The position numbers and the translations under genes were made by a program. From an uncultured virus (IMG/VR IMGVR_UViG_3300031521_000018) (taxonomy: Duplodnaviria; Heunggongvirae; Uroviricota; Caudoviricetes): a stretch of 64,000 nt of DNA. This document shows positions 1-62,715 of the stretch, piece by piece. The stretch lies in the IMG/VR virus record IMGVR_UViG_3300031521_000018, positions 1-64,000 of that record; one strand, 5' to 3'. Each line of letters opens with the position of its first letter. Positions within the stretch are counted from its first letter, which is position 1. The notes under the pieces are model-generated. The model was not told the DNA's origin and searched no databases. It saw nothing but the letters and a program-made list of their open reading frames with translations.

Positions 1-744
1 ACCAAATATTCTATTAATATCTGTAGATAACATTCCAGCAGTTACATAGGCATCTCGAAGGAGTTGCACATTTGCTTTTGAATCATTAGTCCATATAGGT
101 GTTTGTATAGATATATTATTAAATGAAAATATACAATCCGATGGAAATATTGTATATTTAAATGGAATGCCATCGACTTGAACATAAATACTATTAAAAC
201 TTTTAACAATAATAGTATTTAAAACCCAACCTTCTCTAAATGCACTAACATCATCTAAAACTGTACAATTAATTAAACTTGATTTACTAGAATAATTACC
301 ATTAACATATTTTTTAAAAAAAGTATAATAACATATTAACTGCTCTACGTTAGGTAAATCCTGCATAAAATGTACTCTTGTTAAAAAAGAGGTATAATTA
401 GGATTAAACATCTGTTTAATAGTATCAACTTTTAAATTAGCTAACCTATTAGTAGAAAATGTATAGTTAGAACTTAGTAATATCTGGTTACTATCATCTC
501 CCATTATAACTAAATAATTAGAAAATAACTCATTAATTACTCCACGAAAAACACAATATCTCATTCCACTTTTTTGTCCAGCTCTGAACATTCCTTTAAA
601 TGGATGTTCTCTTGTACCATCCCCCGAAAAATCATCACCAACATAAGTATGAATAAATACAGTATTAGTATTATCTAATAACTCTCCTTCACCAATAAGG
701 TCATAATTAATAGCATAACGAAGTTTAAATAAATTTGAACTCAT
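1..744 (-). CDS. Partial (runs off window) beta-helix/tailspike-like virion protein
   Basis: Manual translation from ATG 744: MSSNLFKLRYAINYDLIGEGELLDNTNTVFIHTYVGDDFSGDGTREHPFKG. The GDD-x-GDGT-x3-PFK motif resembles the N-cap of right-handed beta-helix (DUF1565-like) proteins. It is in an operon with fibre-like genes. Confidence 0.55.
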   Translation of the reverse strand, partial: MSSNLFKLRYAINYDLIGEGELLDNTNTVFIHTYVGDDFSGDGTREHPFKGMFRAGQKSGMRYCVFRGVINELFSNYLVIMGDDSNQILLSSNYTFSTNRLANLKVDTIKQMFNPNYTSFLTRVHFMQDLPNVEQLICYYTFFKKYVNGNYSSKSSLINCTVLDDVSAFREGWVLNTIIVKSFNSIYVQVDGIPFKYTIFPSDCIFSFNNISIQTPIWTNDSKANVQLLRDAYVTAGMLSTDINRIFG

Positions 745-887
745 AGTAATTTATTTAAAGGTAATTGATTTAATACTTTCTCAAATTCTTGTGCATATTG
801 AATAGTTTTAAATGGAAATTCAAGAGTCCCATTTTCAATAGTTTCAGTAGATTTTGGATTTATAAAAAATATATTAGTTATTTCCAT
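741..887 (-). CDS. 48-aa mini-protein made of a beta-helix N-cap-like motif
   Basis: MEITNIFFINPKSTETIENGTLEFPFKTIQYAQEFEKVLNQLPLNKLL*. Its TGA overlaps the next ATG (ATGA at 744-741). It is below the ORF-track cutoff. Confidence 0.55.
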   Translation of the reverse strand: MEITNIFFINPKSTETIENGTLEFPFKTIQYAQEFEKVLNQLPLNKLL

Positions 888-889
888 AA

Positions 890-1147
890 TTATTTAATTT
901 TTAAGTAGAAGTCAGAACAAGCCCAATTACTTTGATCTCTATAAATATATTCAGGTTGTACCTGAATAGTAAATTCTCCAACAACTACAGTATAACTTTG
1001 TGGTCGATTAAATCTATCCAAGTAATCAGGAACTAACTTATCATTAATAAGAATATTTACATTCTGATTATACCAGGCTTGAAATTCAGTTGTTTGTTTT
1101 GAAAGGTTTTGATTTTCATCAAATTCTACAATATCATTTATTTTCAT
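890..1147 (-). CDS. Hypothetical protein (fibre operon)
   Basis: 85-aa ORF tightly packed between co-oriented genes. Confidence 0.6.
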   Translation of the reverse strand: MKINDIVEFDENQNLSKQTTEFQAWYNQNVNILINDKLVPDYLDRFNRPQSYTVVVGEFTIQVQPEYIYRDQSNWACSDFYLKIK

Positions 1148-1153
1148 ATTATA

Positions 1154-3589
1154 TTATGTTAGAATAATTACTGCATTAGCATTATTTAGACCTGCTTTAA
1201 TAAGAACATCATTAATTATTAGTTCTTGTCCAGCAAGTAGAATTATACCTATAATTGTAGTTTGGTTATAAGTAGTAGTTCCTATTGTTACAGAAATTCC
1301 ATTACAGTTAGAAGCTAAATTTATTTCTGTAATAGTTCTATCTTTAGTATTAGGATATAATTGTGGAAGTATCATTCCATTAGCTCCATTTTTACTTACT
1401 GCAATTTTTATAGATGAATCTCCACTACTTGGAGGAATGGCAGCAATAGCATCATTTACATATACCTTAGTAGCATATTCACTAAGTGCTAAATTAGGTA
1501 TTTGTGTAAAATATTTAAACCAAATAATTTCTGAGTTTCCATTATAACTTTGGTCATTTATTGTAATAATATTATCTACTAATGATATAATAGGAATTGA
1601 TTGAAATACCCCATCGTTTGGAAAGTGTATATTTAAAATACCTTCTTTAGAAATAGGTGGATAACTTAATCTCATCACTGCATCCACACCTGGAGTTCCA
1701 GACACATAGGTAGCTAACTCATCAATAATCATAGTATCTTGTCTACCCATTAATTGACCATATTCAAATACAGCTTTGGCAGAAGCATATTGTAAATCAG
1801 TGGAGGTTGAAGATACTACAATAGCTTTATTAGATACATCTTCCTTAGCAGAGTCGTGGTGTATAGTTCCAATTTTTTCAAATGCTACTGTGCTTGGGTC
1901 AAATCCATCATATATATTTTCATAAGCCCCATCTCCTTCAACACGTACTGTGTTTAAAGTTATACCAAGAACTACCAATTTTACCAAATTATAAGAGCCT
2001 ATTTTTACAATTTTTGAATATACTCCATTTGAGTAATCTTCCTGTTCTGAAAGTAAAAACAAATCACCATCACTTAAATCATCTATAATCGTACTAGTTG
2101 CACGAAATGTATTATTTGTTGATGGTACGAGAGTAATGTTTTCTTTTAAAATTGCTTTTACAGATATATCTGAGTAATTAGGAATTTCAGGTATATCTAC
2201 AACAGTTGAATCAATAGTCCATGTACCTTGAGTATAAATAGCAAAAACTGTATTGCCTGCGGGAATTAATATACCATTAAACGTTATAGGATTTGATGTT
2301 ATAGATATAATAAAAGTTACCGATTTTGCAGTATCACCCAATGACGGAAAAATTACACTTGTACCATCTACATCAGCACTTATTTTAAAATTTTCGGCTG
2401 TACTTACATTAACTGTATAATTTAAATGACCTAAAATAAGTTTTATTTCCTCGGCTTCTACAGGAATTATTGCGGGTTGTGCAGTACCATAAATTGTAAA
2501 TTCTGGCTTTGGGTCATTGGGTGCTGAAACGTTTACAGTACGATAATAAATTTTATCCATTGTATCAACCCTTTGCTTAACATTAGGTGCTACAAATTGT
2601 CCTATATAAGTTCCACCCAAGCTTCCAATATTTCGGTAATTTCCCGAATTCAAGAATGTATCAAAGAAAGCTAATGTGTTTGCTGTTATAGTATCAGTAC
2701 CCCCAATTTCAAACAATTTACTACCATTCCACATATAATTTTTGGAGTTATATATGTAAATAACACCCGATAATGGGATAATTCCTATTGGAGGATTTCC
2801 ATTAACATGGACTCCAAATTGAAATTGTCCACCACCTAGTTGAGCCTGATAAATTAAGTTTGTGGTAGAATCATAGTAAAAATGATTTGTACTTGAGTAT
2901 GTTAAATGTGGCTGATCTGTTATAGATTCAAGTGTTACCTTACCAACTTTGTTTGACAGATTTACTAATAGTTCATTTATAGAGCCAACAACAAGCTTAG
3001 AAACAGTGTTTAATGTTTCATCTATTTTGTCTTGTTTATCAGACATGTTTGCAACACTATTTTCTATAGATGTAAATTTGGATAGGTATGTTATTATGGT
3101 GTCACCTGATAGATTTCCACTTTTATATATTTTTTTAGTTTCAGAATTATAAATTACATTTCCACCCTCTGTTGATAAAAGTATAGTTTCTATTACGTTT
3201 TTACTAGTTATAGGTGTATAAGCAGTTGGAACATCAAATTGAGTACCCGAAGCAGAATTTATAAAATGTATAGTAAGAAAAACACTTCTCCCGAACTTAT
3301 TATAAGATATAAATTCAGAGCCTTGTATAATAGTTGAGTTTTTAACGGAATCATCAATTATTATTCTACCATCTCGTCCTGGCTTTCCTATATTATTGGT
3401 TGATACATCGCCTTTGCTTATTCGTTGTTCTATTTTTTTGGTAATAAAATCAACGAAATTAATGTCAGCTATTTGAGATAACGATGAAAAATTTGTATTT
3501 ATTATCTCAATAGCCTGTTCAAGTGTGGCATTTTGAGGCATTTCAACAATATCAATATGGTCTATTCCATTTAAATCGTATTGTGTCAT
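1154..3589 (-). CDS. Putative tail fibre / modular virion protein
   Basis: 811 aa, Thr/Ser/Gly/Asn-rich and modular. It has fibre-like segments (DKQDKIDETLNT..LVVGSINEL; KEDVSNK..QYASAKAV; YATKVYVNDAIA) and a short GKPGRDG. Confidence 0.55.
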   Translation of the reverse strand: MTQYDLNGIDHIDIVEMPQNATLEQAIEIINTNFSSLSQIADINFVDFITKKIEQRISKGDVSTNNIGKPGRDGRIIIDDSVKNSTIIQGSEFISYNKFGRSVFLTIHFINSASGTQFDVPTAYTPITSKNVIETILLSTEGGNVIYNSETKKIYKSGNLSGDTIITYLSKFTSIENSVANMSDKQDKIDETLNTVSKLVVGSINELLVNLSNKVGKVTLESITDQPHLTYSSTNHFYYDSTTNLIYQAQLGGGQFQFGVHVNGNPPIGIIPLSGVIYIYNSKNYMWNGSKLFEIGGTDTITANTLAFFDTFLNSGNYRNIGSLGGTYIGQFVAPNVKQRVDTMDKIYYRTVNVSAPNDPKPEFTIYGTAQPAIIPVEAEEIKLILGHLNYTVNVSTAENFKISADVDGTSVIFPSLGDTAKSVTFIISITSNPITFNGILIPAGNTVFAIYTQGTWTIDSTVVDIPEIPNYSDISVKAILKENITLVPSTNNTFRATSTIIDDLSDGDLFLLSEQEDYSNGVYSKIVKIGSYNLVKLVVLGITLNTVRVEGDGAYENIYDGFDPSTVAFEKIGTIHHDSAKEDVSNKAIVVSSTSTDLQYASAKAVFEYGQLMGRQDTMIIDELATYVSGTPGVDAVMRLSYPPISKEGILNIHFPNDGVFQSIPIISLVDNIITINDQSYNGNSEIIWFKYFTQIPNLALSEYATKVYVNDAIAAIPPSSGDSSIKIAVSKNGANGMILPQLYPNTKDRTITEINLASNCNGISVTIGTTTYNQTTIIGIILLAGQELIINDVLIKAGLNNANAVIILT

Positions 3590-18011: not shown

Positions 18012-18848
18012 CTATCTATTGAATACTGATGTTAGATCACCTGAATCATCGGATTGTAAAGGCACTTTACCCATTATATCAGATATAGCATTCCAAAATT
18101 CTTGTGGGCAATATTGCGAAATATCATCCACAAGCTCTTGAAATTCAGGTAATTTTCTTACGTGTGTGATATTTACAGAGGTCATTATACAATCATCATT
18201 ACCAATCATTGCACAATATCCACCAAAATTACCATTCTTTAATTTTTTTCGTGCAAATGATAATGCCTCCTCTATTGTTATAAATTCTGTTAATACCAAT
18301 TGTGTCTGCCTCATTTGGGTTTTCATCATTGTAGTACCCAAGTTTTTAGTATGGTCATTTTGCTTGATTCCAACACGCACAGCATAAGATTGATCATCTT
18401 TCATATTGTATGCAAATTGTAAGAAAAGTAAATCGCCATCTATTTCATTCTCCTCACCATATAATTTAATAACAATTTCCCTAAAATAGTTTCCATCATA
18501 ATTATTTTCAAGACATGTCCTTACGTTATCGGGTATAAAAAGCTCAACTAAGCAATGATAATACCATTTAGCTAATTCGGGTACTATTACTTGATTTGAC
18601 CTGAACATAGCAACCTGAACCATTTTAAAAAAAGAATATTCATCTTCTATAATTGATACTTTTCCTATTTCATCAATGGTCATAGGTAGAACCTCAAAGA
18701 TGTTTATGACTGAATAATCACCACCCGTTCCCTCAGCCAAATCTATTGAGTGTACAAATCTCCTACGTTCATCTTTAAATCTTGATATGTCAATAGATGA
18801 ATGAACTAAGAAATACATATCAAGATCAAGCAGTGTTTCAGAATACAT
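18012..18848 (-). CDS. Terminase large subunit, stand-alone C-terminal nuclease domain (T4 gp17-like)
   Basis: RNase H-fold motifs SIDLAEGTGGDYS, LENNYDG and GNDDCIMT; no ATPase motifs and no intein. Confidence 0.85.
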   Translation of the reverse strand: MYSETLLDLDMYFLVHSSIDISRFKDERRRFVHSIDLAEGTGGDYSVINIFEVLPMTIDEIGKVSIIEDEYSFFKMVQVAMFRSNQVIVPELAKWYYHCLVELFIPDNVRTCLENNYDGNYFREIVIKLYGEENEIDGDLLFLQFAYNMKDDQSYAVRVGIKQNDHTKNLGTTMMKTQMRQTQLVLTEFITIEEALSFARKKLKNGNFGGYCAMIGNDDCIMTSVNITHVRKLPEFQELVDDISQYCPQEFWNAISDIMGKVPLQSDDSGDLTSVFNR

Positions 18849-37163: not shown

Positions 37164-38642
37164 TTAAGCTATTAATTTTTTAAGTTCTTCTATATCATGA
37201 GCAATATCATGATTAGCATATTTTGCCTTAACACGCTTTGTAAACAAGTTGTCTATGACAGTTCTAACACATCCATCTTTTTCACTTGTATATACTACAC
37301 CATTGTTAGCACGTATCATAGTGTTTTTATCATATGGTATTTGCTCACCTGTTTTTGTAACAACGGTTGTTTTATCGTCATATGTTTGACCTATATAAGT
37401 ATCAAGACCAACATTTAGGAATTGCATTATGGATGGATAAAGACTTTCGAAGTCATAAATGCCAATGTATTCATATAAGCCTATTGTTGGCTCAACAACA
37501 AAAGCACCCGCATAGCCTTCTTTTATGTTTTCTTCTTTTATAAATACCTTATTGTAAGTTTTGTAATAATAATCACTAAAGATTGATTCTATTATAATTG
37601 AAACCGATGTTCCCAAAAGTAAATCAACCTTTCCAATGTTGGTTATAGTTTGCATCAAGGAAAATATATCGGTTTTCTTGTCAATCATTTCTACAAGAAA
37701 AGCATCAGTTATACCATAAAAGCAAAATTTCTCAAAATCTGTGTCGTATAAATCTTGTAAGTTTCCATTGTATTCAATTTTGGTAACACCCAATACCTCA
37801 TTCGAAATAAACCCTAATGACATAGATGTTTTATACGCAACAGATTGGTCAAAGAATTCAAATATTTGCATATAATCAATAATTGGTCTATGCAATGGTA
37901 AATCTAATATTATTTTATTTTCTTTGTTGTATTTATCAGAAAGCGAATGAGAAAATGTTTTTCCTACAGGTGATATAATTTTTGCATAATCAATACCTGT
38001 TCTTTTACACCTATTAAAATAATATTGTGCATCAAATTTTAAAACATTCCAACCGAATATTACAGACATTTTGCTCATATAGTTTACGGCAAAATCGCAA
38101 TTCATGGAGTATTCATCTTTGTATTGACGGTATTTTAGATTTACTTGTTTAACTATTTTTTTATCCAATATTTTAGATAAATGAGCGTTTAATTTTATTT
38201 CAATTCTTTTTAATTGCTCACCCGTCAATTCCTTCATCCCAAATATAGTACCATTTCCATATTCATCACAAATAGTATGGAGTAATATTCTACCAATAGG
38301 ATTGGATGCCTCGGTATACACACCATTAACAGTTTCTGTTTCTATATCCCAAAACCATTTCTTTGGCTTGTTATCTGAAAATATTTTGTCCTGTAAATGC
38401 TGTGGTAAATTATTTATATATTCGTATTGCCTGTATTTTGTTAGATAATTTTTACGTATCTTTTTTACGGGTCTATCAAATTGAGATGTTATAGTAGGAT
38501 GTTTGTATCTATCATCTAATCCTGCTTCCTCCCAAACAAATTTTTCACTATCTGAAATTGGAATATTAACCAAGTCTATTTCACCATTTTCATTGAAATA
38601 GGAGATAGACATGTCATTAAATATTTGTTTTGAATTTATCAT
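37164..38642 (-). CDS. Family B DNA polymerase, N-terminal half (exonuclease + motif A) of a split gene
   Basis: ExoI WDIETE, ExoII GWNVLKFDAQY, ExoIII YGITDA, YAGAFV and motif A DFESLYPS. It ends in the fingers helix before motif B; no YGDTDS. Confidence 0.9.
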   Translation of the reverse strand: MINSKQIFNDMSISYFNENGEIDLVNIPISDSEKFVWEEAGLDDRYKHPTITSQFDRPVKKIRKNYLTKYRQYEYINNLPQHLQDKIFSDNKPKKWFWDIETETVNGVYTEASNPIGRILLHTICDEYGNGTIFGMKELTGEQLKRIEIKLNAHLSKILDKKIVKQVNLKYRQYKDEYSMNCDFAVNYMSKMSVIFGWNVLKFDAQYYFNRCKRTGIDYAKIISPVGKTFSHSLSDKYNKENKIILDLPLHRPIIDYMQIFEFFDQSVAYKTSMSLGFISNEVLGVTKIEYNGNLQDLYDTDFEKFCFYGITDAFLVEMIDKKTDIFSLMQTITNIGKVDLLLGTSVSIIIESIFSDYYYKTYNKVFIKEENIKEGYAGAFVVEPTIGLYEYIGIYDFESLYPSIMQFLNVGLDTYIGQTYDDKTTVVTKTGEQIPYDKNTMIRANNGVVYTSEKDGCVRTVIDNLFTKRVKAKYANHDIAHDIEELKKLIA

Positions 38643-39499: not shown

Positions 39500-40588
39500 T
39501 CAAGATGCATTGGAAAGCCGATTATTTGTAAAGTGTGATTGATATGATTTTAATGACTTCATAACATCAGATGGCAAAAGTAATTGTTGATTGGTATCAA
39601 AACTATTTCCATACTCTTGCTCAAATGCTTCCTCAGAACCTATGTTGGCTGTTTCCTCTTGTTTCCATTTATCATCTCTACCCTCAACATCAAACCAATC
39701 TACACGTATAGGATTGAAATAATTTTTACCAAGTAATCCATCAGTGTACAATTGCCAAAATAAATTTCTGCCTCTTGCTGTAGATGTAATTATCATCTTT
39801 GCTGTTTTTGACGATGACATTGTTGGAAAAATAGTTTGATAGAATATTTTTAATACCTGTGGGTCAATCAGTGCAAATTCATCACAGTAAAGTATACCGT
39901 TAACAGTAAGACCTGCACCCGCTTTCTCTGTTGCTGTTTCACCTTTTATTGAGCAGCCATTATCATATATTTTCCTCTTTTGATTATCAACACATATACC
40001 AAGTTTCATATAAAATGGCAAATTGTCGTATATTGTATCTATCTTTTCTATAAGTTCTTTAACTTTATCATCGGTTGCCGAAGTACATGCGACACCTTTA
40101 TCATAATTGGTAAGTAAATACCACATTATAAAAATACCTGATGTAATAGAATTATGGCTCAGTATATCATTAGAAAAATAACTCATTTCTCCTGAACCAA
40201 CTGTAACATCAAAAGTAAATTGTCTAGGTAATTTTTCTACTTTTACAACACGTGATATTCCTTGTTTTGTGATTAAAAATGTCTGCCTTGTTACGTTATT
40301 AGCATCAATTATCTGCATATTTGAATCATAAAACAAATGATTTACAGAACACTTTACAAAGCATCCATTTTTAGTAGTTATTTTAAGTATTTCGGCATTT
40401 GTCTTAATATGGACAGCCGATAAATATTGACCACCCTTTATACCGTTTACCAATAAATTATCTTTAGGAATAGAGGAACTAATTATACAGTCTTCCTCAA
40501 CTTTATATTTCCACAGATTATAATTTAAAAATATAACTATTTTTAATATAGCATTTAAAGTTTTTTCCAAAATTTCTAATAGTCCCAT
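39500..40588 (-). CDS. Split-intein C-fragment fused to the terminase large subunit ATPase core
   Basis: Likely start is ATG 40588, 4 nt after the upstream stop. After SHN comes S-ITSG (the Ser of Walker A GKS), Walker B ILYCDEFA, motif III IITSTARG, VDWFDVEGRDDKW and FEQEYG. RQxGK and the nuclease domain are absent. Confidence 0.88.
   Translation of the reverse strand: MGLLEILEKTLNAILKIVIFLNYNLWKYKVEEDCIISSSIPKDNLLVNGIKGGQYLSAVHIKTNAEILKITTKNGCFVKCSVNHLFYDSNMQIIDANNVTRQTFLITKQGISRVVKVEKLPRQFTFDVTVGSGEMSYFSNDILSHNSITSGIFIMWYLLTNYDKGVACTSATDDKVKELIEKIDTIYDNLPFYMKLGICVDNQKRKIYDNGCSIKGETATEKAGAGLTVNGILYCDEFALIDPQVLKIFYQTIFPTMSSSKTAKMIITSTARGRNLFWQLYTDGLLGKNYFNPIRVDWFDVEGRDDKWKQEETANIGSEEAFEQEYGNSFDTNQQLLLPSDVMKSLKSYQSHFTNNRLSNAS
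40151..40588 (-). mobile_element. Atypical (long, 146-aa) IntC of a split intein at TerL Walker A
   Basis: Block B KCSVNHLF, block F FTFDVTV..SYFSNDI, block G LSHN|S; no block A and no endonuclease. Confidence 0.85.
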
Positions 40589-59987: not shown

Positions 59988-61574
59988 ATGATTGCTAAAC
60001 TATCTGATGATTTACAATATATAACTCTGTTTTTTGAAACAGAGGCTGAACAATTACAAACATCTGTTTACTTCAGGAAGAAAATAGATAATTTCCATTT
60101 TCTACAAAAGAAATTGAAAGCTAAAGGTAAAAGACTTGATGGTATTATAAACTATATGATAGGTGCTGATAAATTAAAGTCAACACAATGGTCTAATTTA
60201 ATGACTATGTGTGAAAGATTTGGATTTCCTATACAACTTCAAAATTTTGATAATCTAATAAGAGATAATATAACTTATGATCAGGTTAAAAAATTTTGCT
60301 ACAGCATGACAGAACATATCGATGATATAGTTCCTTATGATTACCAAGTAGAATCGATATACAATGCTTATAAATATAGGTTCTCAAGACTTGATGTTGG
60401 TACGGGTGGTGGTAAAACACTTACCATGTATTTACTAATGATGCTTCTTAGATATACAGGTCAGGCACATCACATACTTATTATAGAGCCTGACCCACAA
60501 TATGTAATACAAACATATCAAGAATTTACTGACTATTCAAATGGTAGATTCAACCTTAAGATGGGTATGGCTTATGGTGATTCAAAGGATAAAAAGAATA
60601 TAGGTAAATTTGATCATATAATTGGTAATTTTCAAACTTTGGCAAATTTAGATGAAACTTTTTTATCTAAATTTGATACAGTATTTTGTGATGAATCTCA
60701 TAGGTCTACATCATCATCCATAATGAATATAATTAAAAATTGTGGTGTACTTATGAACAGAGTTGGTCTATCAGGCTCACACCCAAAGGTTGGTGATAAT
60801 TCTGAACATTTCACAAACGAGGATAATTTTGGTCTTATATCATACATAATTTCAAAGAGGGATTTGGTTTCTGCAGGTGCTACAACAGATTGTAAAATAA
60901 AACAAATAATAATTGATTTTGCTAGTGATAAGGAAAAATTGCAATTAGCTATTGATAAGGAATATATAGATGACCCTGAGAAAAAATTAAGGTATGAACA
61001 GCAATTTGTAAGATCACACAGAAGACTTTTTGAATGGAAATGTCAATTGGTTAGTAAAATGAAAGGAAACACATTAGTTTATTTTACAGACAAGAAAGGT
61101 GGATATGGCAAACAAATATATGAAAGGCTTATTGAACTTAATATATACCAAAACCTTGGTAAAAAGATATATTTTATCGATGGTGATGTAGAGGTATCAA
61201 CAAGAGAAATAATAAAAAGCGAAATTAAAAATCATACTGAGGGTAACTGTATATTGGTTGCAAACTATTTAACTTTCTCAACGGGTCAATCAATCAAAAA
61301 CTTAGTTAATATTTTGTATGGTGAGGCATTTAAATCTAGTACAACTAATAATCAAACTATGGGTAGATTGGCACGTCTTTATGAGGGTAAAGATATGACA
61401 TATATTTATGATGTAGTTGAATCTACTAACACAAAGAAACAAAATTTGACAACAGGTAAATTGGAGTCAATTGTATCTTATATGCATAAATGGGGAAAGG
61501 AACGTTACTCCTATTATGTATCTGAGGAATTCGAGGTTGAACAAATAAAAATAAATATATCTAAAGACTATTAA
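59988..61574 (+). CDS. uvsW: UvsW-like SF2 DNA helicase
   Basis: Q-motif PYDYQ, GTGGGKT, DESH, GLSGS, FIDG, TFSTGQSIKNL and QTMGRLAR. Confidence 0.9.
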   Translation: MIAKLSDDLQYITLFFETEAEQLQTSVYFRKKIDNFHFLQKKLKAKGKRLDGIINYMIGADKLKSTQWSNLMTMCERFGFPIQLQNFDNLIRDNITYDQVKKFCYSMTEHIDDIVPYDYQVESIYNAYKYRFSRLDVGTGGGKTLTMYLLMMLLRYTGQAHHILIIEPDPQYVIQTYQEFTDYSNGRFNLKMGMAYGDSKDKKNIGKFDHIIGNFQTLANLDETFLSKFDTVFCDESHRSTSSSIMNIIKNCGVLMNRVGLSGSHPKVGDNSEHFTNEDNFGLISYIISKRDLVSAGATTDCKIKQIIIDFASDKEKLQLAIDKEYIDDPEKKLRYEQQFVRSHRRLFEWKCQLVSKMKGNTLVYFTDKKGGYGKQIYERLIELNIYQNLGKKIYFIDGDVEVSTREIIKSEIKNHTEGNCILVANYLTFSTGQSIKNLVNILYGEAFKSSTTNNQTMGRLARLYEGKDMTYIYDVVESTNTKKQNLTTGKLESIVSYMHKWGKERYSYYVSEEFEVEQIKINISKDY

Positions 61575-61595
61575 CAAAATTAAAATTTAAAAACT

Positions 61596-62075
61596 ATGAT
61601 GTACTTCAAAGCACTGATTAAAGAAGAAACCAAAACGGACTTCGGAATAGTACCAAAGACACAAGAATATTATATTCCCGCACTAAATTATACAGATGCT
61701 GAAAATATATTCAAGGAACTTATAAATCTTGATATGATATGTAAAGAATGTATATCTATTGAAAACAGAAAGCAACTTGAATTCAAAAAGATATTGAAGG
61801 AAGAAATTGAGGGTGTTGTTGGTGATGATAGCGATTTTTATTACAAAGTAGCCGTTAAATTTAGTACGGGTGAAGGTAATAAAACAGCAACCAACAATTT
61901 TTATGTTTCAAATGATAGCTGTGATGCATATAAAAAAATATCTGAATATATTAGCAAGGTAGGATATATGTCTGATAGTGAGATAATATCAATAGTTAAA
62001 AAGGATAGAATTAAAACAATCTTCGAAATGACTAACGAGGATTATAAATTGGCGTATGATAATATTGTTAAATAA
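61596..62075 (+). CDS. DUF4494-like protein
   Basis: Duplicated pattern YFKALIK..EYYIPALNYTDAE / FYYKVAVKF..SEIISI resembles the Bacteroidota DUF4494 family. Confidence 0.55.
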   Translation: MMYFKALIKEETKTDFGIVPKTQEYYIPALNYTDAENIFKELINLDMICKECISIENRKQLEFKKILKEEIEGVVGDDSDFYYKVAVKFSTGEGNKTATNNFYVSNDSCDAYKKISEYISKVGYMSDSEIISIVKKDRIKTIFEMTNEDYKLAYDNIVK

Positions 62076-62715
62076 TTTAAAAATATGTGTATATAAGACC
62101 TCTATTAAATTAATAGAGGTCTTAGAATATTTTATGATTTATAAGGAATATAGGTCTTATAACATAAGTAAATTTGGGTATTTTGTAAACATAGATGAAG
62201 ATCAAGAGTCAAAAATAACCCATGTTCATTACACAGGTATAAAAAGATTATACAAACTTGAAACATATGGTGGTAAAACCTTATATGCCACCCAAGACCA
62301 TATACTTCCTATATATCAGGTTACAGAGGTGTTAAAAGGAAATGATAAATTTTTTTCTATTGCTGATCTCAAACACAAAATTGATATGCATACAGGCAGC
62401 AAATATAGTGTTATAAATTCAGGTGGATTCTGTGAGGAGGTAAAATCGATAGAAAAAATATTGGGATTTCATAGAGTATTTGACTTAACTATAAGTAACA
62501 AAATGCATGTATTCGTTGCTAATGGTATCAAAGTGCATAACTGTGTAACTGCCGATACTGGTATAGAAATACTCAACAAAGAAACCTCAGAATTCAATCA
62601 CATTCCAATATTTGAACTGTATTATTCAAACATAAAATCTAAAAATTGGTTAACCAAATTTGAATATTGGTTAACAAAAACAATTTATAAAATAAATAAT
62701 AAAAACAAAGTGTAA
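62056..62715 (+). CDS. Extein-less IntC-IntN fusion (permuted/tandem split-intein protein)
   Basis: Block B YATQDHILP, block F RVFDLTI..HVFVANG and block G KVHN are followed at once (Cys163, 62542-62544) by block A CVTADTGIEI..HIPIFELYY and a 57-aa IntN tail. Confidence 0.85.
   Translation: MIILLNNLKICVYKTSIKLIEVLEYFMIYKEYRSYNISKFGYFVNIDEDQESKITHVHYTGIKRLYKLETYGGKTLYATQDHILPIYQVTEVLKGNDKFFSIADLKHKIDMHTGSKYSVINSGGFCEEVKSIEKILGFHRVFDLTISNKMHVFVANGIKVHNCVTADTGIEILNKETSEFNHIPIFELYYSNIKSKNWLTKFEYWLTKTIYKINNKNKV

Follow-up and report, generated by a model that had tools for sequence, protein, structure and literature searches.

Introduction

To our knowledge, inteins have been described either as contiguous elements or as elements split in two, with each half attached to the protein that is repaired. 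A conserved protein made up of only two different intein halves would represent a third natural layout, in which one cysteine serves two inteins. A candidate for such a protein is encoded in the 64,000-nucleotide stretch of DNA analysed here (the window; positions 1 to 64,000 of the uncultured-virus record IMGVR_UViG_3300031521_000018), at positions 62056–62715 on the plus strand. This gene, designated the bridge, is an open reading frame (ORF) of 219 residues comprising the C-terminal fragment (IntC) of one intein, intein 1, followed directly by the N-terminal fragment (IntN) of another, intein 2, and is without an extein. Its putative partners are two separately encoded pieces of the terminase large subunit (TerL), referred to below as TerL-N and TerL-C.

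Three naturally atypically split inteins, AceL-TerL, GOS-TerL, and the consensus Cat-TerL, likewise have TerL as their host gene, as listed in a review (PMC11766414). These inteins share with the bridge a split near the N terminus, a short IntN, and a long IntC that contains blocks B, F, and G. In the table of that review, all three have a cysteine at +1, with GOS-TerL combining Ser1 and Cys+1. Their halves are each described with an extein in the same source; the bridge, however, has none, and TerL residues are found only in its two partner genes. Natural inteins, according to a study on engineered inteins (bioRxiv 10.1101/2023.01.30.526203), had so far been found as products of either one gene or two.

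Two-piece TerL inteins are also present in the uncultured large phages LR756500.1 and LR756501.1, whose records are unannotated. They occupy the same site as the inteins considered here (RQTGK/C and RQVGK/C, respectively), are split at the same position, and possess a tail helix and a leader helix on either side of the split; their IntNs are the closest relatives of the bridge IntN. Only two genes are involved, however, and no stand-alone bridge was found in either whole genome with the bridge family profile at E ≤ 1. In LR756500.1 (462 kb), the TerL N piece ends AARQTGK/C and its IntN has the same PIFELYY helix and an FLDKI.Y.L.K tail. The gene order is TerL-N, an endonuclease-like ORF, and an IntC-TerL-C of 628 residues. 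The two pieces of LR756501.1 are 12 kb apart. The annotated TerL intein of Klebsiella phage Magnus (NC_049462.1, Ackermannviridae) lies at the same Walker A site (ARQSGK/C ... SHN/T) but is contiguous and unsplit, with a plain loop where the split forms have tail and leader helices. These three TerL inteins (n = 3; two in two pieces and one contiguous) serve as references below.

Anatomy of the bridge

Residues 1–162 of the bridge (62056–62541, plus strand) form the IntC of intein 1, which contains blocks B, F, and G, lacks block A, and ends in His161-Asn162. Residues 163–219 (62542–62712, plus strand) form the IntN of intein 2 and consist of block-A strands, the short helix PIFELYY, and a tail helix of approximately 20–30 residues. 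A leader helix at the N terminus of the IntC, approximately residues 1–30 (62056–62145, plus strand), precedes the Hint core and carries the acidic motif LIEVLEYF. The tail helix of the IntN covers residues 198–215 (62647–62700, plus strand), with a glutamate at diagnostic position 7 (KFEYW). Leader, IntC, IntN, and tail account for all 219 residues, leaving no room for the extein that marks a conventional split-intein half. No non-intein family in Pfam, NCBIfam, or PHROGs matched the protein, and the extein is likewise missing from 13 stand-alone relatives of 198–232 residues.

The junction between the halves lies at 62536–62544 (plus strand). His161, Asn162, and Cys163 are invariant in 14 of 14 family members, with zero residues between Asn162 and Cys163 in each; the cyclisable extein X of a layout resembling split-intein circular ligation of peptides and proteins (SICLOPPS) is therefore absent. 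Read from the sequence, Cys163 serves intein 1 as its +1 nucleophile and at the same time opens intein 2 as residue 1. An earlier, sequence-only reading of the window had proposed this shared cysteine, as well as a 219-residue ORF without a host protein, a long atypical IntC at residues 1–162 (TQDH, VFDLTI, and a VHN end), and a 57-residue IntN opened by Cys163 directly after it. The anatomy proved to be as described, with the named IntC residues both real and conserved.

Curated intein hidden Markov models, which the same reading had suggested for both halves, were divided on the IntC and did not match the IntN. NCBIfam TIGR01443 (intein_Cterm) matched bridge residues 141–163 with 21.7 bits, above its cut-off of 15.6, and Pfam Intein_splicing (PF14890) matched residues 50–162 along profile positions 34–155 of 155 (E = 3.2e-6), albeit at 27.4 bits and thus below its cut-off of 35.8 bits. 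Residues 163–219, a short piece, had no curated match in Pfam or NCBIfam. The histidine of block B, the aspartate of block F, the His-Asn of block G, and the +1 cysteine are all present, as is characteristic of class 1 inteins.

An AlphaFold2 model of the bridge, built from a 14-sequence alignment, has a mean predicted local distance difference test score (pLDDT) of 83.4. Compared with solved structures by VIA-align, model residues 31–163 best matched 4oz6_A (Z 12.4; root-mean-square deviation (rmsd) 1.9; 120 residues aligned), and 72 of 997 chains reached Z ≥ 8 against the model. Nearly all of those listed were inteins, which identifies the fold as Hint. The structural alignments of the IntC begin at approximately residues 18–27 of solved whole inteins, and its closest solved chains by sequence are the Ssp and Npu DnaB mini-inteins. 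By its sequence, the bridge IntC is split between blocks A and B, giving the short IntN and long IntC of the atypical TerL split inteins. AlphaFold2 places a helix at residues 2–27, within which K9, K14, I17, L19, I20, and E24 are invariant in five close relatives.

For the second half, AlphaFold2 predicts strands at residues 163–165, 169–174, and 179–184, followed by helices at 185–191 and 198–215. Searches of the Protein Data Bank (PDB) with phmmer listed no intein at E ≤ 10 for either short IntN, that of the bridge or that of TerL-N. The bridge family profile matched the IntNs fused to TerL-N in LR756500.1 and LR756501.1 (E = 1.8e-4 and 1.9e-4, respectively), as well as the IntCs of the same two phages (E = 1.9e-19 and 4.7e-22), and local alignment of the bridge tail from the window with the two IntNs gave z 6.6 and 4.2. 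By this homology to IntNs carried on TerL N pieces, the bridge tail is a real IntN; it is also the best-conserved portion of the bridge among its four close relatives.

The terminase genes

TerL-C, a 362-residue protein, is encoded at window positions 39500–40588 on the minus strand, with the IntC of intein 2 at 40151–40588 and the extein at 39503–40150. The IntC occupies residues 1–146 and ends LSHN, after which the extein begins SITSG. The closest solved intein to this IntC is gp41-1 (6qaz; E = 3.4e-6), and extein residues 147–339 correspond to positions 291–462 of phrog_2, a PHROGs terminase large subunit family. A cysteine at position 34 of the IntC was considered as the start of a complete intein and rejected, as both the Pfam and the gp41-1 alignments place it after block A.

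TerL-N lies outside the window and was found by a motif scan of the whole 125-kb source record (G000, rated 83% complete), at genome positions 76990–77493 on the plus strand. The 168-residue product has an extein that ends FLSSRQSGK, followed by a cysteine and a 58-residue IntN. The extein matches phrog_2 positions 262–290 and phrog_5989 positions 95–170, and a TerL-N profile run against the PDB matched T4 gp17 alone, for the extein and up to GK. The two TerL pieces match PHROGs terminase large subunit with E-values of 7.6e-15 and 7.2e-19. Their exteins abut: the N piece ends at phrog_2 position 290 (position 170 of phrog_5989) and the C piece starts at 291 (again position 170 of phrog_5989), with no extein residue missing. 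Joining of the two should therefore end in a seamless GK-SITSG product. Both pieces figure in the sequence-only reading: the orphan IntC-TerL ATPase that it reported is upheld by the ORF and by the Pfam, gp41-1, and PHROGs matches, and the N fragment, predicted to end RQxGK before an IntN cysteine, exists as RQSGK-Cys.

The nuclease domain of TerL is encoded by a further, stand-alone gene of 278 residues (window 18012–18848, minus strand) that has no intein piece; it was recognised with the nuclease portion of the LR756500.1 TerL (E = 4.5e-23, 25% identity). The packaging motor is therefore encoded by three extein genes plus the bridge. Pfam Terminase_6N and Terminase_6C had no match in the whole of G000, where PHROGs and the TerL nuclease query did match. 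A census of G000 returned exactly two IntN and two IntC pieces, with the next best matches at E = 0.06 and 0.5; the models used include the G000 sequences themselves, and only the absence of further matches is informative. The three split-intein genes are scattered over both strands at 39.5, 62, and 77 kb, 15–37 kb apart.

Conservation of the three-gene set

A word-based protein search with the bridge returned four relatives of 218–225 residues (50%–74% identity, 92%–100% query coverage), all of which keep the whole architecture; at the level of sequence, the layout is thus more than a chance juxtaposition. The tail alone retrieved the same five proteins and no others. A profile search of 1.84 billion representative proteins gave 1470 matches at E ≤ 0.001, mostly ordinary intein-bearing proteins. 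Further stand-alone proteins of 198–232 residues match most or all of the bridge profile (P0007, P0008, P0010, P0012, P0015, P0056, and P0077). The 14 members of the resulting family diverge to approximately 25% identity yet retain their catalytic residues to either side of the junction. H82 (TQDH), D143 (VFDLT), H161, N162, C163, E187, and Y190 are invariant in the alignment. The members are found on contigs of 150–247 kb from several sources, and no copy seen has an interrupted reading frame.

All three genes are present in two genomes rated 100% complete, G001 (167 kb) and G002 (150 kb), in line with the survey of related phages that the sequence-only reading had recommended. Relative to G000, identity is 68% for TerL-N and 83% for TerL-C in G001, and 56% and 64%, respectively, in G002, whose bridge matches with E = 2.3e-31. 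Each of the two genomes has two Intein_splicing matches, which are the bridge and TerL-C. IMG/VR scans with TerL-N or TerL-C alignments revealed no further lineage; the bridge therefore co-occurs with these TerL pieces in three of three lineages. Family alignments run against contigs returned the same three phage lineages and one contig, L023, with the TerL partners of 7 of the 14 members remaining unseen. Neither viral nor metagenome contigs yielded the fusion protein P0057, and no viral contig yielded P0077. Coverage of the IntC by tblastn in Synechococcus phage ACG-2014d and Sinorhizobium phage phiM12 was dropped, as TerL in these phages is annotated as ordinary or simply divided, with no intein annotated.

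An identical copy of the bridge gene is located on the metagenome contig L040 (172,256 bases). The 125-kb record therefore probably covers only part of a genome of approximately 172 kb, and the term 'jumbo' phage, applied in the sequence-only reading, is best regarded as a loose label.

Which halves pair

Four halves are available for pairing: the TerL-N IntN (a), the bridge IntC (x), the bridge IntN (y), and the TerL-C IntC (b). Pairing of a with x and of y with b would make the bridge a relay between the two TerL pieces, as the sequence-only reading had proposed. This is the best-supported reading of the sequence evidence and is judged probable, though well short of secure.

The first line of evidence is likeness to the reference TerL inteins. 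Among the IntCs, b is close to the references (z 9.6–18.7; for the Hint core of the Magnus intein, z 13–15.5) compared with x (z 0.9–8.0). Among the IntNs, y (z 3.0–8.4) exceeds a (z −0.1 to 5.0), and did so in nine of nine same-genome comparisons, albeit by a margin of only 0.2 in one of them. The bridge IntN and the TerL-C IntC therefore seem to share one lineage, with the two divergent halves in another. Evolutionary rates, a second line, follow the same division. Across G000, G001, and G002, identity is 40/21/23% for x and 56/34/38% for a, against 65/42/42% for y and 74/51/49% for b; the proposed partners are thus the two fastest and the two slowest pieces.

The helices flanking the split carry a third signal. 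Tail position 7 is lysine in eight of eight TerL-N tails and in both reference tails, but glutamate in 12 of 14 bridge tails. The leader is acidic (Glu/Asp) at position 7 or 10 in all 14 bridges and in both references, whereas the TerL-C leaders have no acidic residue at those positions and have Lys/His at position 4 (3/3). Were tail and leader to form an antiparallel hairpin, the diagnostic positions would be expected to contact one another.

A fourth line comes from proteins in which the pieces are joined. P0057, a single chain of 376 residues on a 168-kb contig, comprises TerL-N, an IntN1-like part, a helical hairpin, an IntC1-like part (VHN), and then a cysteine with an IntN2-like tail; its first intein starts with serine. 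Contiguous abutting inteins with a shared cysteine occur elsewhere, in L023 (MIVHN/CIAWDT) and P0066 (IFAHN/CFAGDT). Finally, only the relay assigns a function to every invariant catalytic residue.

Several observations weigh against the relay. AlphaFold2, run on the bridge alone, docks the bridge's own IntN on its own IntC with confidence (pLDDT 82–89 over residues 161–210), which suggests, as far as a model can, that y completes x. In the P0057 model, the IntN1-like part has pLDDT <50 and the IntN2-like tail 84–91; this model is biased, however, because MAFFT aligned the TerL-N IntNs with the second IntN and left the first without alignment depth. P0057 could also be reconciled with direct pairing of the TerL halves, its IntC1-IntN2 part being a passenger. 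The two halves of P0077 are near the two halves of one reference intein (IntC z 35–47; IntN z 15.7) and its tail retains lysine at position 7, and thus x and y may be cognate within the P0077 subgroup. Tail and leader lengths give a mixed picture, agreeing with the relay in two genomes (G000 and G002) and disagreeing with it in G001. Leader position 7 is lysine, arginine, or serine in 4 of 14 bridges, and the TerL-C leaders are sampled from three genomes. Lastly, the IntN of GOS-TerL is exchangeable with that of AceL-TerL, as stated in PMC11766414, which makes cross-reaction among such inteins plausible.

This last point leads to the alternative that survives best, in which one split intein has given rise to all four halves, which have diverged but still cross-react, so that TerL is joined either directly or via the bridge. 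The bridge would then buffer splicing, time it, or compete with it, or else be a young duplicate that is evolving towards an obligatory role. All four halves are indeed homologous over their full length, tails and leaders included, and the P0077 subgroup resembles a recent fusion of cognate halves. The copies have drifted far apart, however: the two IntCs of G000 are only 31% identical over 48 residues (E = 0.021; z 1.2), and the two IntNs score z 1.0–2.8 against each other. A dispensable gene would, moreover, be expected to have been lost somewhere, whereas three of three lineages keep the bridge with its catalytic residues intact. Cross-reaction as the full explanation is accordingly considered unlikely, although it is the alternative given most weight.

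Ranked behind it, and likewise rated unlikely, is a self-contained permuted intein: a would pair directly with b, and x and y would be mutually cognate and form a closed Hint domain capable at most of self-cleavage at Asn162/Cys163, a selfish or leftover element outside TerL maturation. The confident docking of the bridge's own tail, repeated in P0057, is what this explanation would predict. It would further account for the match of the bridge profile to both halves of the LR756500.1 and LR756501.1 inteins, for the P0077 halves being the closest relatives of those same two reference halves, and for the better fit of tail and leader lengths in G001. However, a closed Hint domain that acts on no substrate offers no reason for five catalytic residues to be invariant in 14 of 14 members at approximately 25% identity, nor for the gene to persist in three of three lineages without an adjoining endonuclease gene. 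The bridge halves of G000–G002 differ sharply in both reference likeness and rate, and the pairing would set like charges against one another, a Glu tail against an acidic leader and a Lys tail against a Lys/His leader. The same residue is, in addition, unable to act as both residue 1 and residue +1 of one intein, and thus Cys163 could not fill both roles in splicing by a permuted intein.

An inert remnant left by rearrangement of the terminase locus, by now neither expressed nor active, is conceivable as debris in a genome over which TerL and the family B DNA polymerase (PolB) are both scattered, but is most improbable given a frame intact in every copy, a tail that is the best-conserved part, catalytic residues invariant in 14 of 14 members, and occurrence on 150–247-kb contigs from several sources.

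Proposed mechanism and origin

Under the relay, TerL would be interrupted by two abutting inteins at its Walker A lysine (GK/S), both split just after block A, and would be distributed over three genes: TerL-N-IntN1, the bridge (IntC1-IntN2), and IntC2-TerL-C. IntN1 would dock on the bridge IntC1, and trans-splicing would transfer TerL-N to Cys163, generating TerL-N-IntN2. Docking of IntN2 on IntC2 would then permit a second trans-splicing reaction that yields the seamless RQSGK-SITSG ATPase, with Cys163 leaving together with the intein. Either reaction may come first: in the reverse order, the bridge and IntC2-TerL-C would initially produce IntC1-TerL-C, and the same product would result. Partner choice is probably governed by the helices on either side of each split site, the IntN tail and the IntC leader, acting as a zipper.

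The bridge would on this account be obligatory for the joining of TerL, and packaging would depend on three separately encoded genes for the sake of one peptide bond, the putative AND gate of the sequence-only reading. The stronger proposition, that terminase maturation needs two consecutive, mutually orthogonal trans-splicings through an all-intein protein that leaves no residue in the product, and hence constitutes a natural relay at the protein level, might equally well prove right or wrong.

As to origin, a split intein may have been duplicated to give an IntC-IntN fusion, after which the two pairs would have diverged as charges in the zipper helices were swapped, to the point at which the bridge could no longer be lost, a course of constructive neutral evolution. 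In this history, the P0077 subgroup would represent an early stage, and P0057 a form with its first intein in one piece.

Genomic surroundings and related observations

Upstream of the bridge, window positions 59988–62075 (plus strand) encode a 528-residue ResIII/DEAD-type helicase followed by a 159-residue DUF4494 protein, and the 3′ end of the DUF4494 gene overlaps the start of the bridge by 20 bases. With these neighbours, the bridge is therefore located among replication-type genes and away from the packaging genes; its immediate neighbours are the DUF4494 protein and ORFs without a family match in Pfam or PHROGs.

Two genes encode PolB; they lie on opposite strands (window 37164–38642, minus; genome 75653–76888, plus) with 37 kb between them, and neither has an intein piece. 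The C part of PolB, containing the YGDTDS motif, is directly upstream of TerL-N, an adjacency kept in G001 and G002. Directly after TerL-C in G002 (L017 2574–3848, plus strand) is a 424-residue ORF with zinc-finger-like cysteine pairs that is homing-endonuclease-like in appearance. The endonuclease-like ORF between the TerL intein halves of LR756500.1 (L026 1248–2348, plus strand) has 366 residues and gives a fractured-gene layout. Downstream of the terminase gene, the same phage has another TerL-ATPase-like gene (L026 4326–5138, plus strand), which is free of inteins.

Closely spaced inteins were seen in other proteins. The L023 frame (1–3102, plus strand) is an open, tape-measure-like frame of >1000 residues with two contiguous inteins and zero extein between them, the first of which carries an HNH-like, zinc-finger-rich insert. 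P0066 (1710 residues) has several inteins, and its abutting pair stands before a Walker-B-like LIDEA. P0069 and P0123 have two inteins each, separated by only nine and four extein residues, respectively. The Ser1/Cys+1 combination given for GOS-TerL in PMC11766414 is also that of the first intein of P0057.

Comparison with known systems

The bridge model aligns with the Cat-TerL structure (6dsl_B) at Z 10.8 and rmsd 3.4 over 113 residues. The relation in sequence is weak (family profile against CatC, E = 0.003), CatC being the only described member compared. Unlike those of AceL-TerL, GOS-TerL, and Cat-TerL, the IntNs described here reach 57–58 residues because a tail helix of approximately 20–30 residues follows the Hint part.

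Fractured genes, as presented by Dassa et al. 2009 (PMC2677866), are similarly phage enzymes broken by split inteins into separately encoded pieces. Two halves there flank a free-standing endonuclease gene, whereas the present system has three genes on both strands with no endonuclease between them. G000 thus does not show the fractured-gene arrangement, and one of its three genes is extein-less. Full-text searches, whose coverage excluded most subscription papers, returned no published natural protein consisting only of IntC and IntN and no natural abutting split inteins. The layout was accordingly not found described, whichever pairing holds; even the permuted-intein explanation would amount to a natural circularly permuted intein, likewise not found described.

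Were the relay to be true, it would show how selfish elements can become indispensable at the protein level, and would make phage DNA packaging dependent on an additional post-translational step. It would also offer protein engineers two atypical split inteins that are naturally orthogonal and come with their own zipper helices, together with a scarless adaptor for exchanging intein handles.

In 2005, Shi and Muir reportedly engineered tandem trans-splicing based on a pair of orthogonal split inteins. As described in PMC12707363, the engineered scheme, like the one proposed here, has two consecutive reactions that pass through a middle piece, IntC(a)-X-IntN(b). The engineered middle piece, however, carries a wanted extein X, whereas in the bridge X is zero residues long and one cysteine would serve both inteins, leaving no trace. 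Engineered three-piece split inteins (bioRxiv 10.1101/2023.01.30.526203) also require three polypeptides per ligation; in these, a single intein is cut in three, whereas here two inteins are each cut once.

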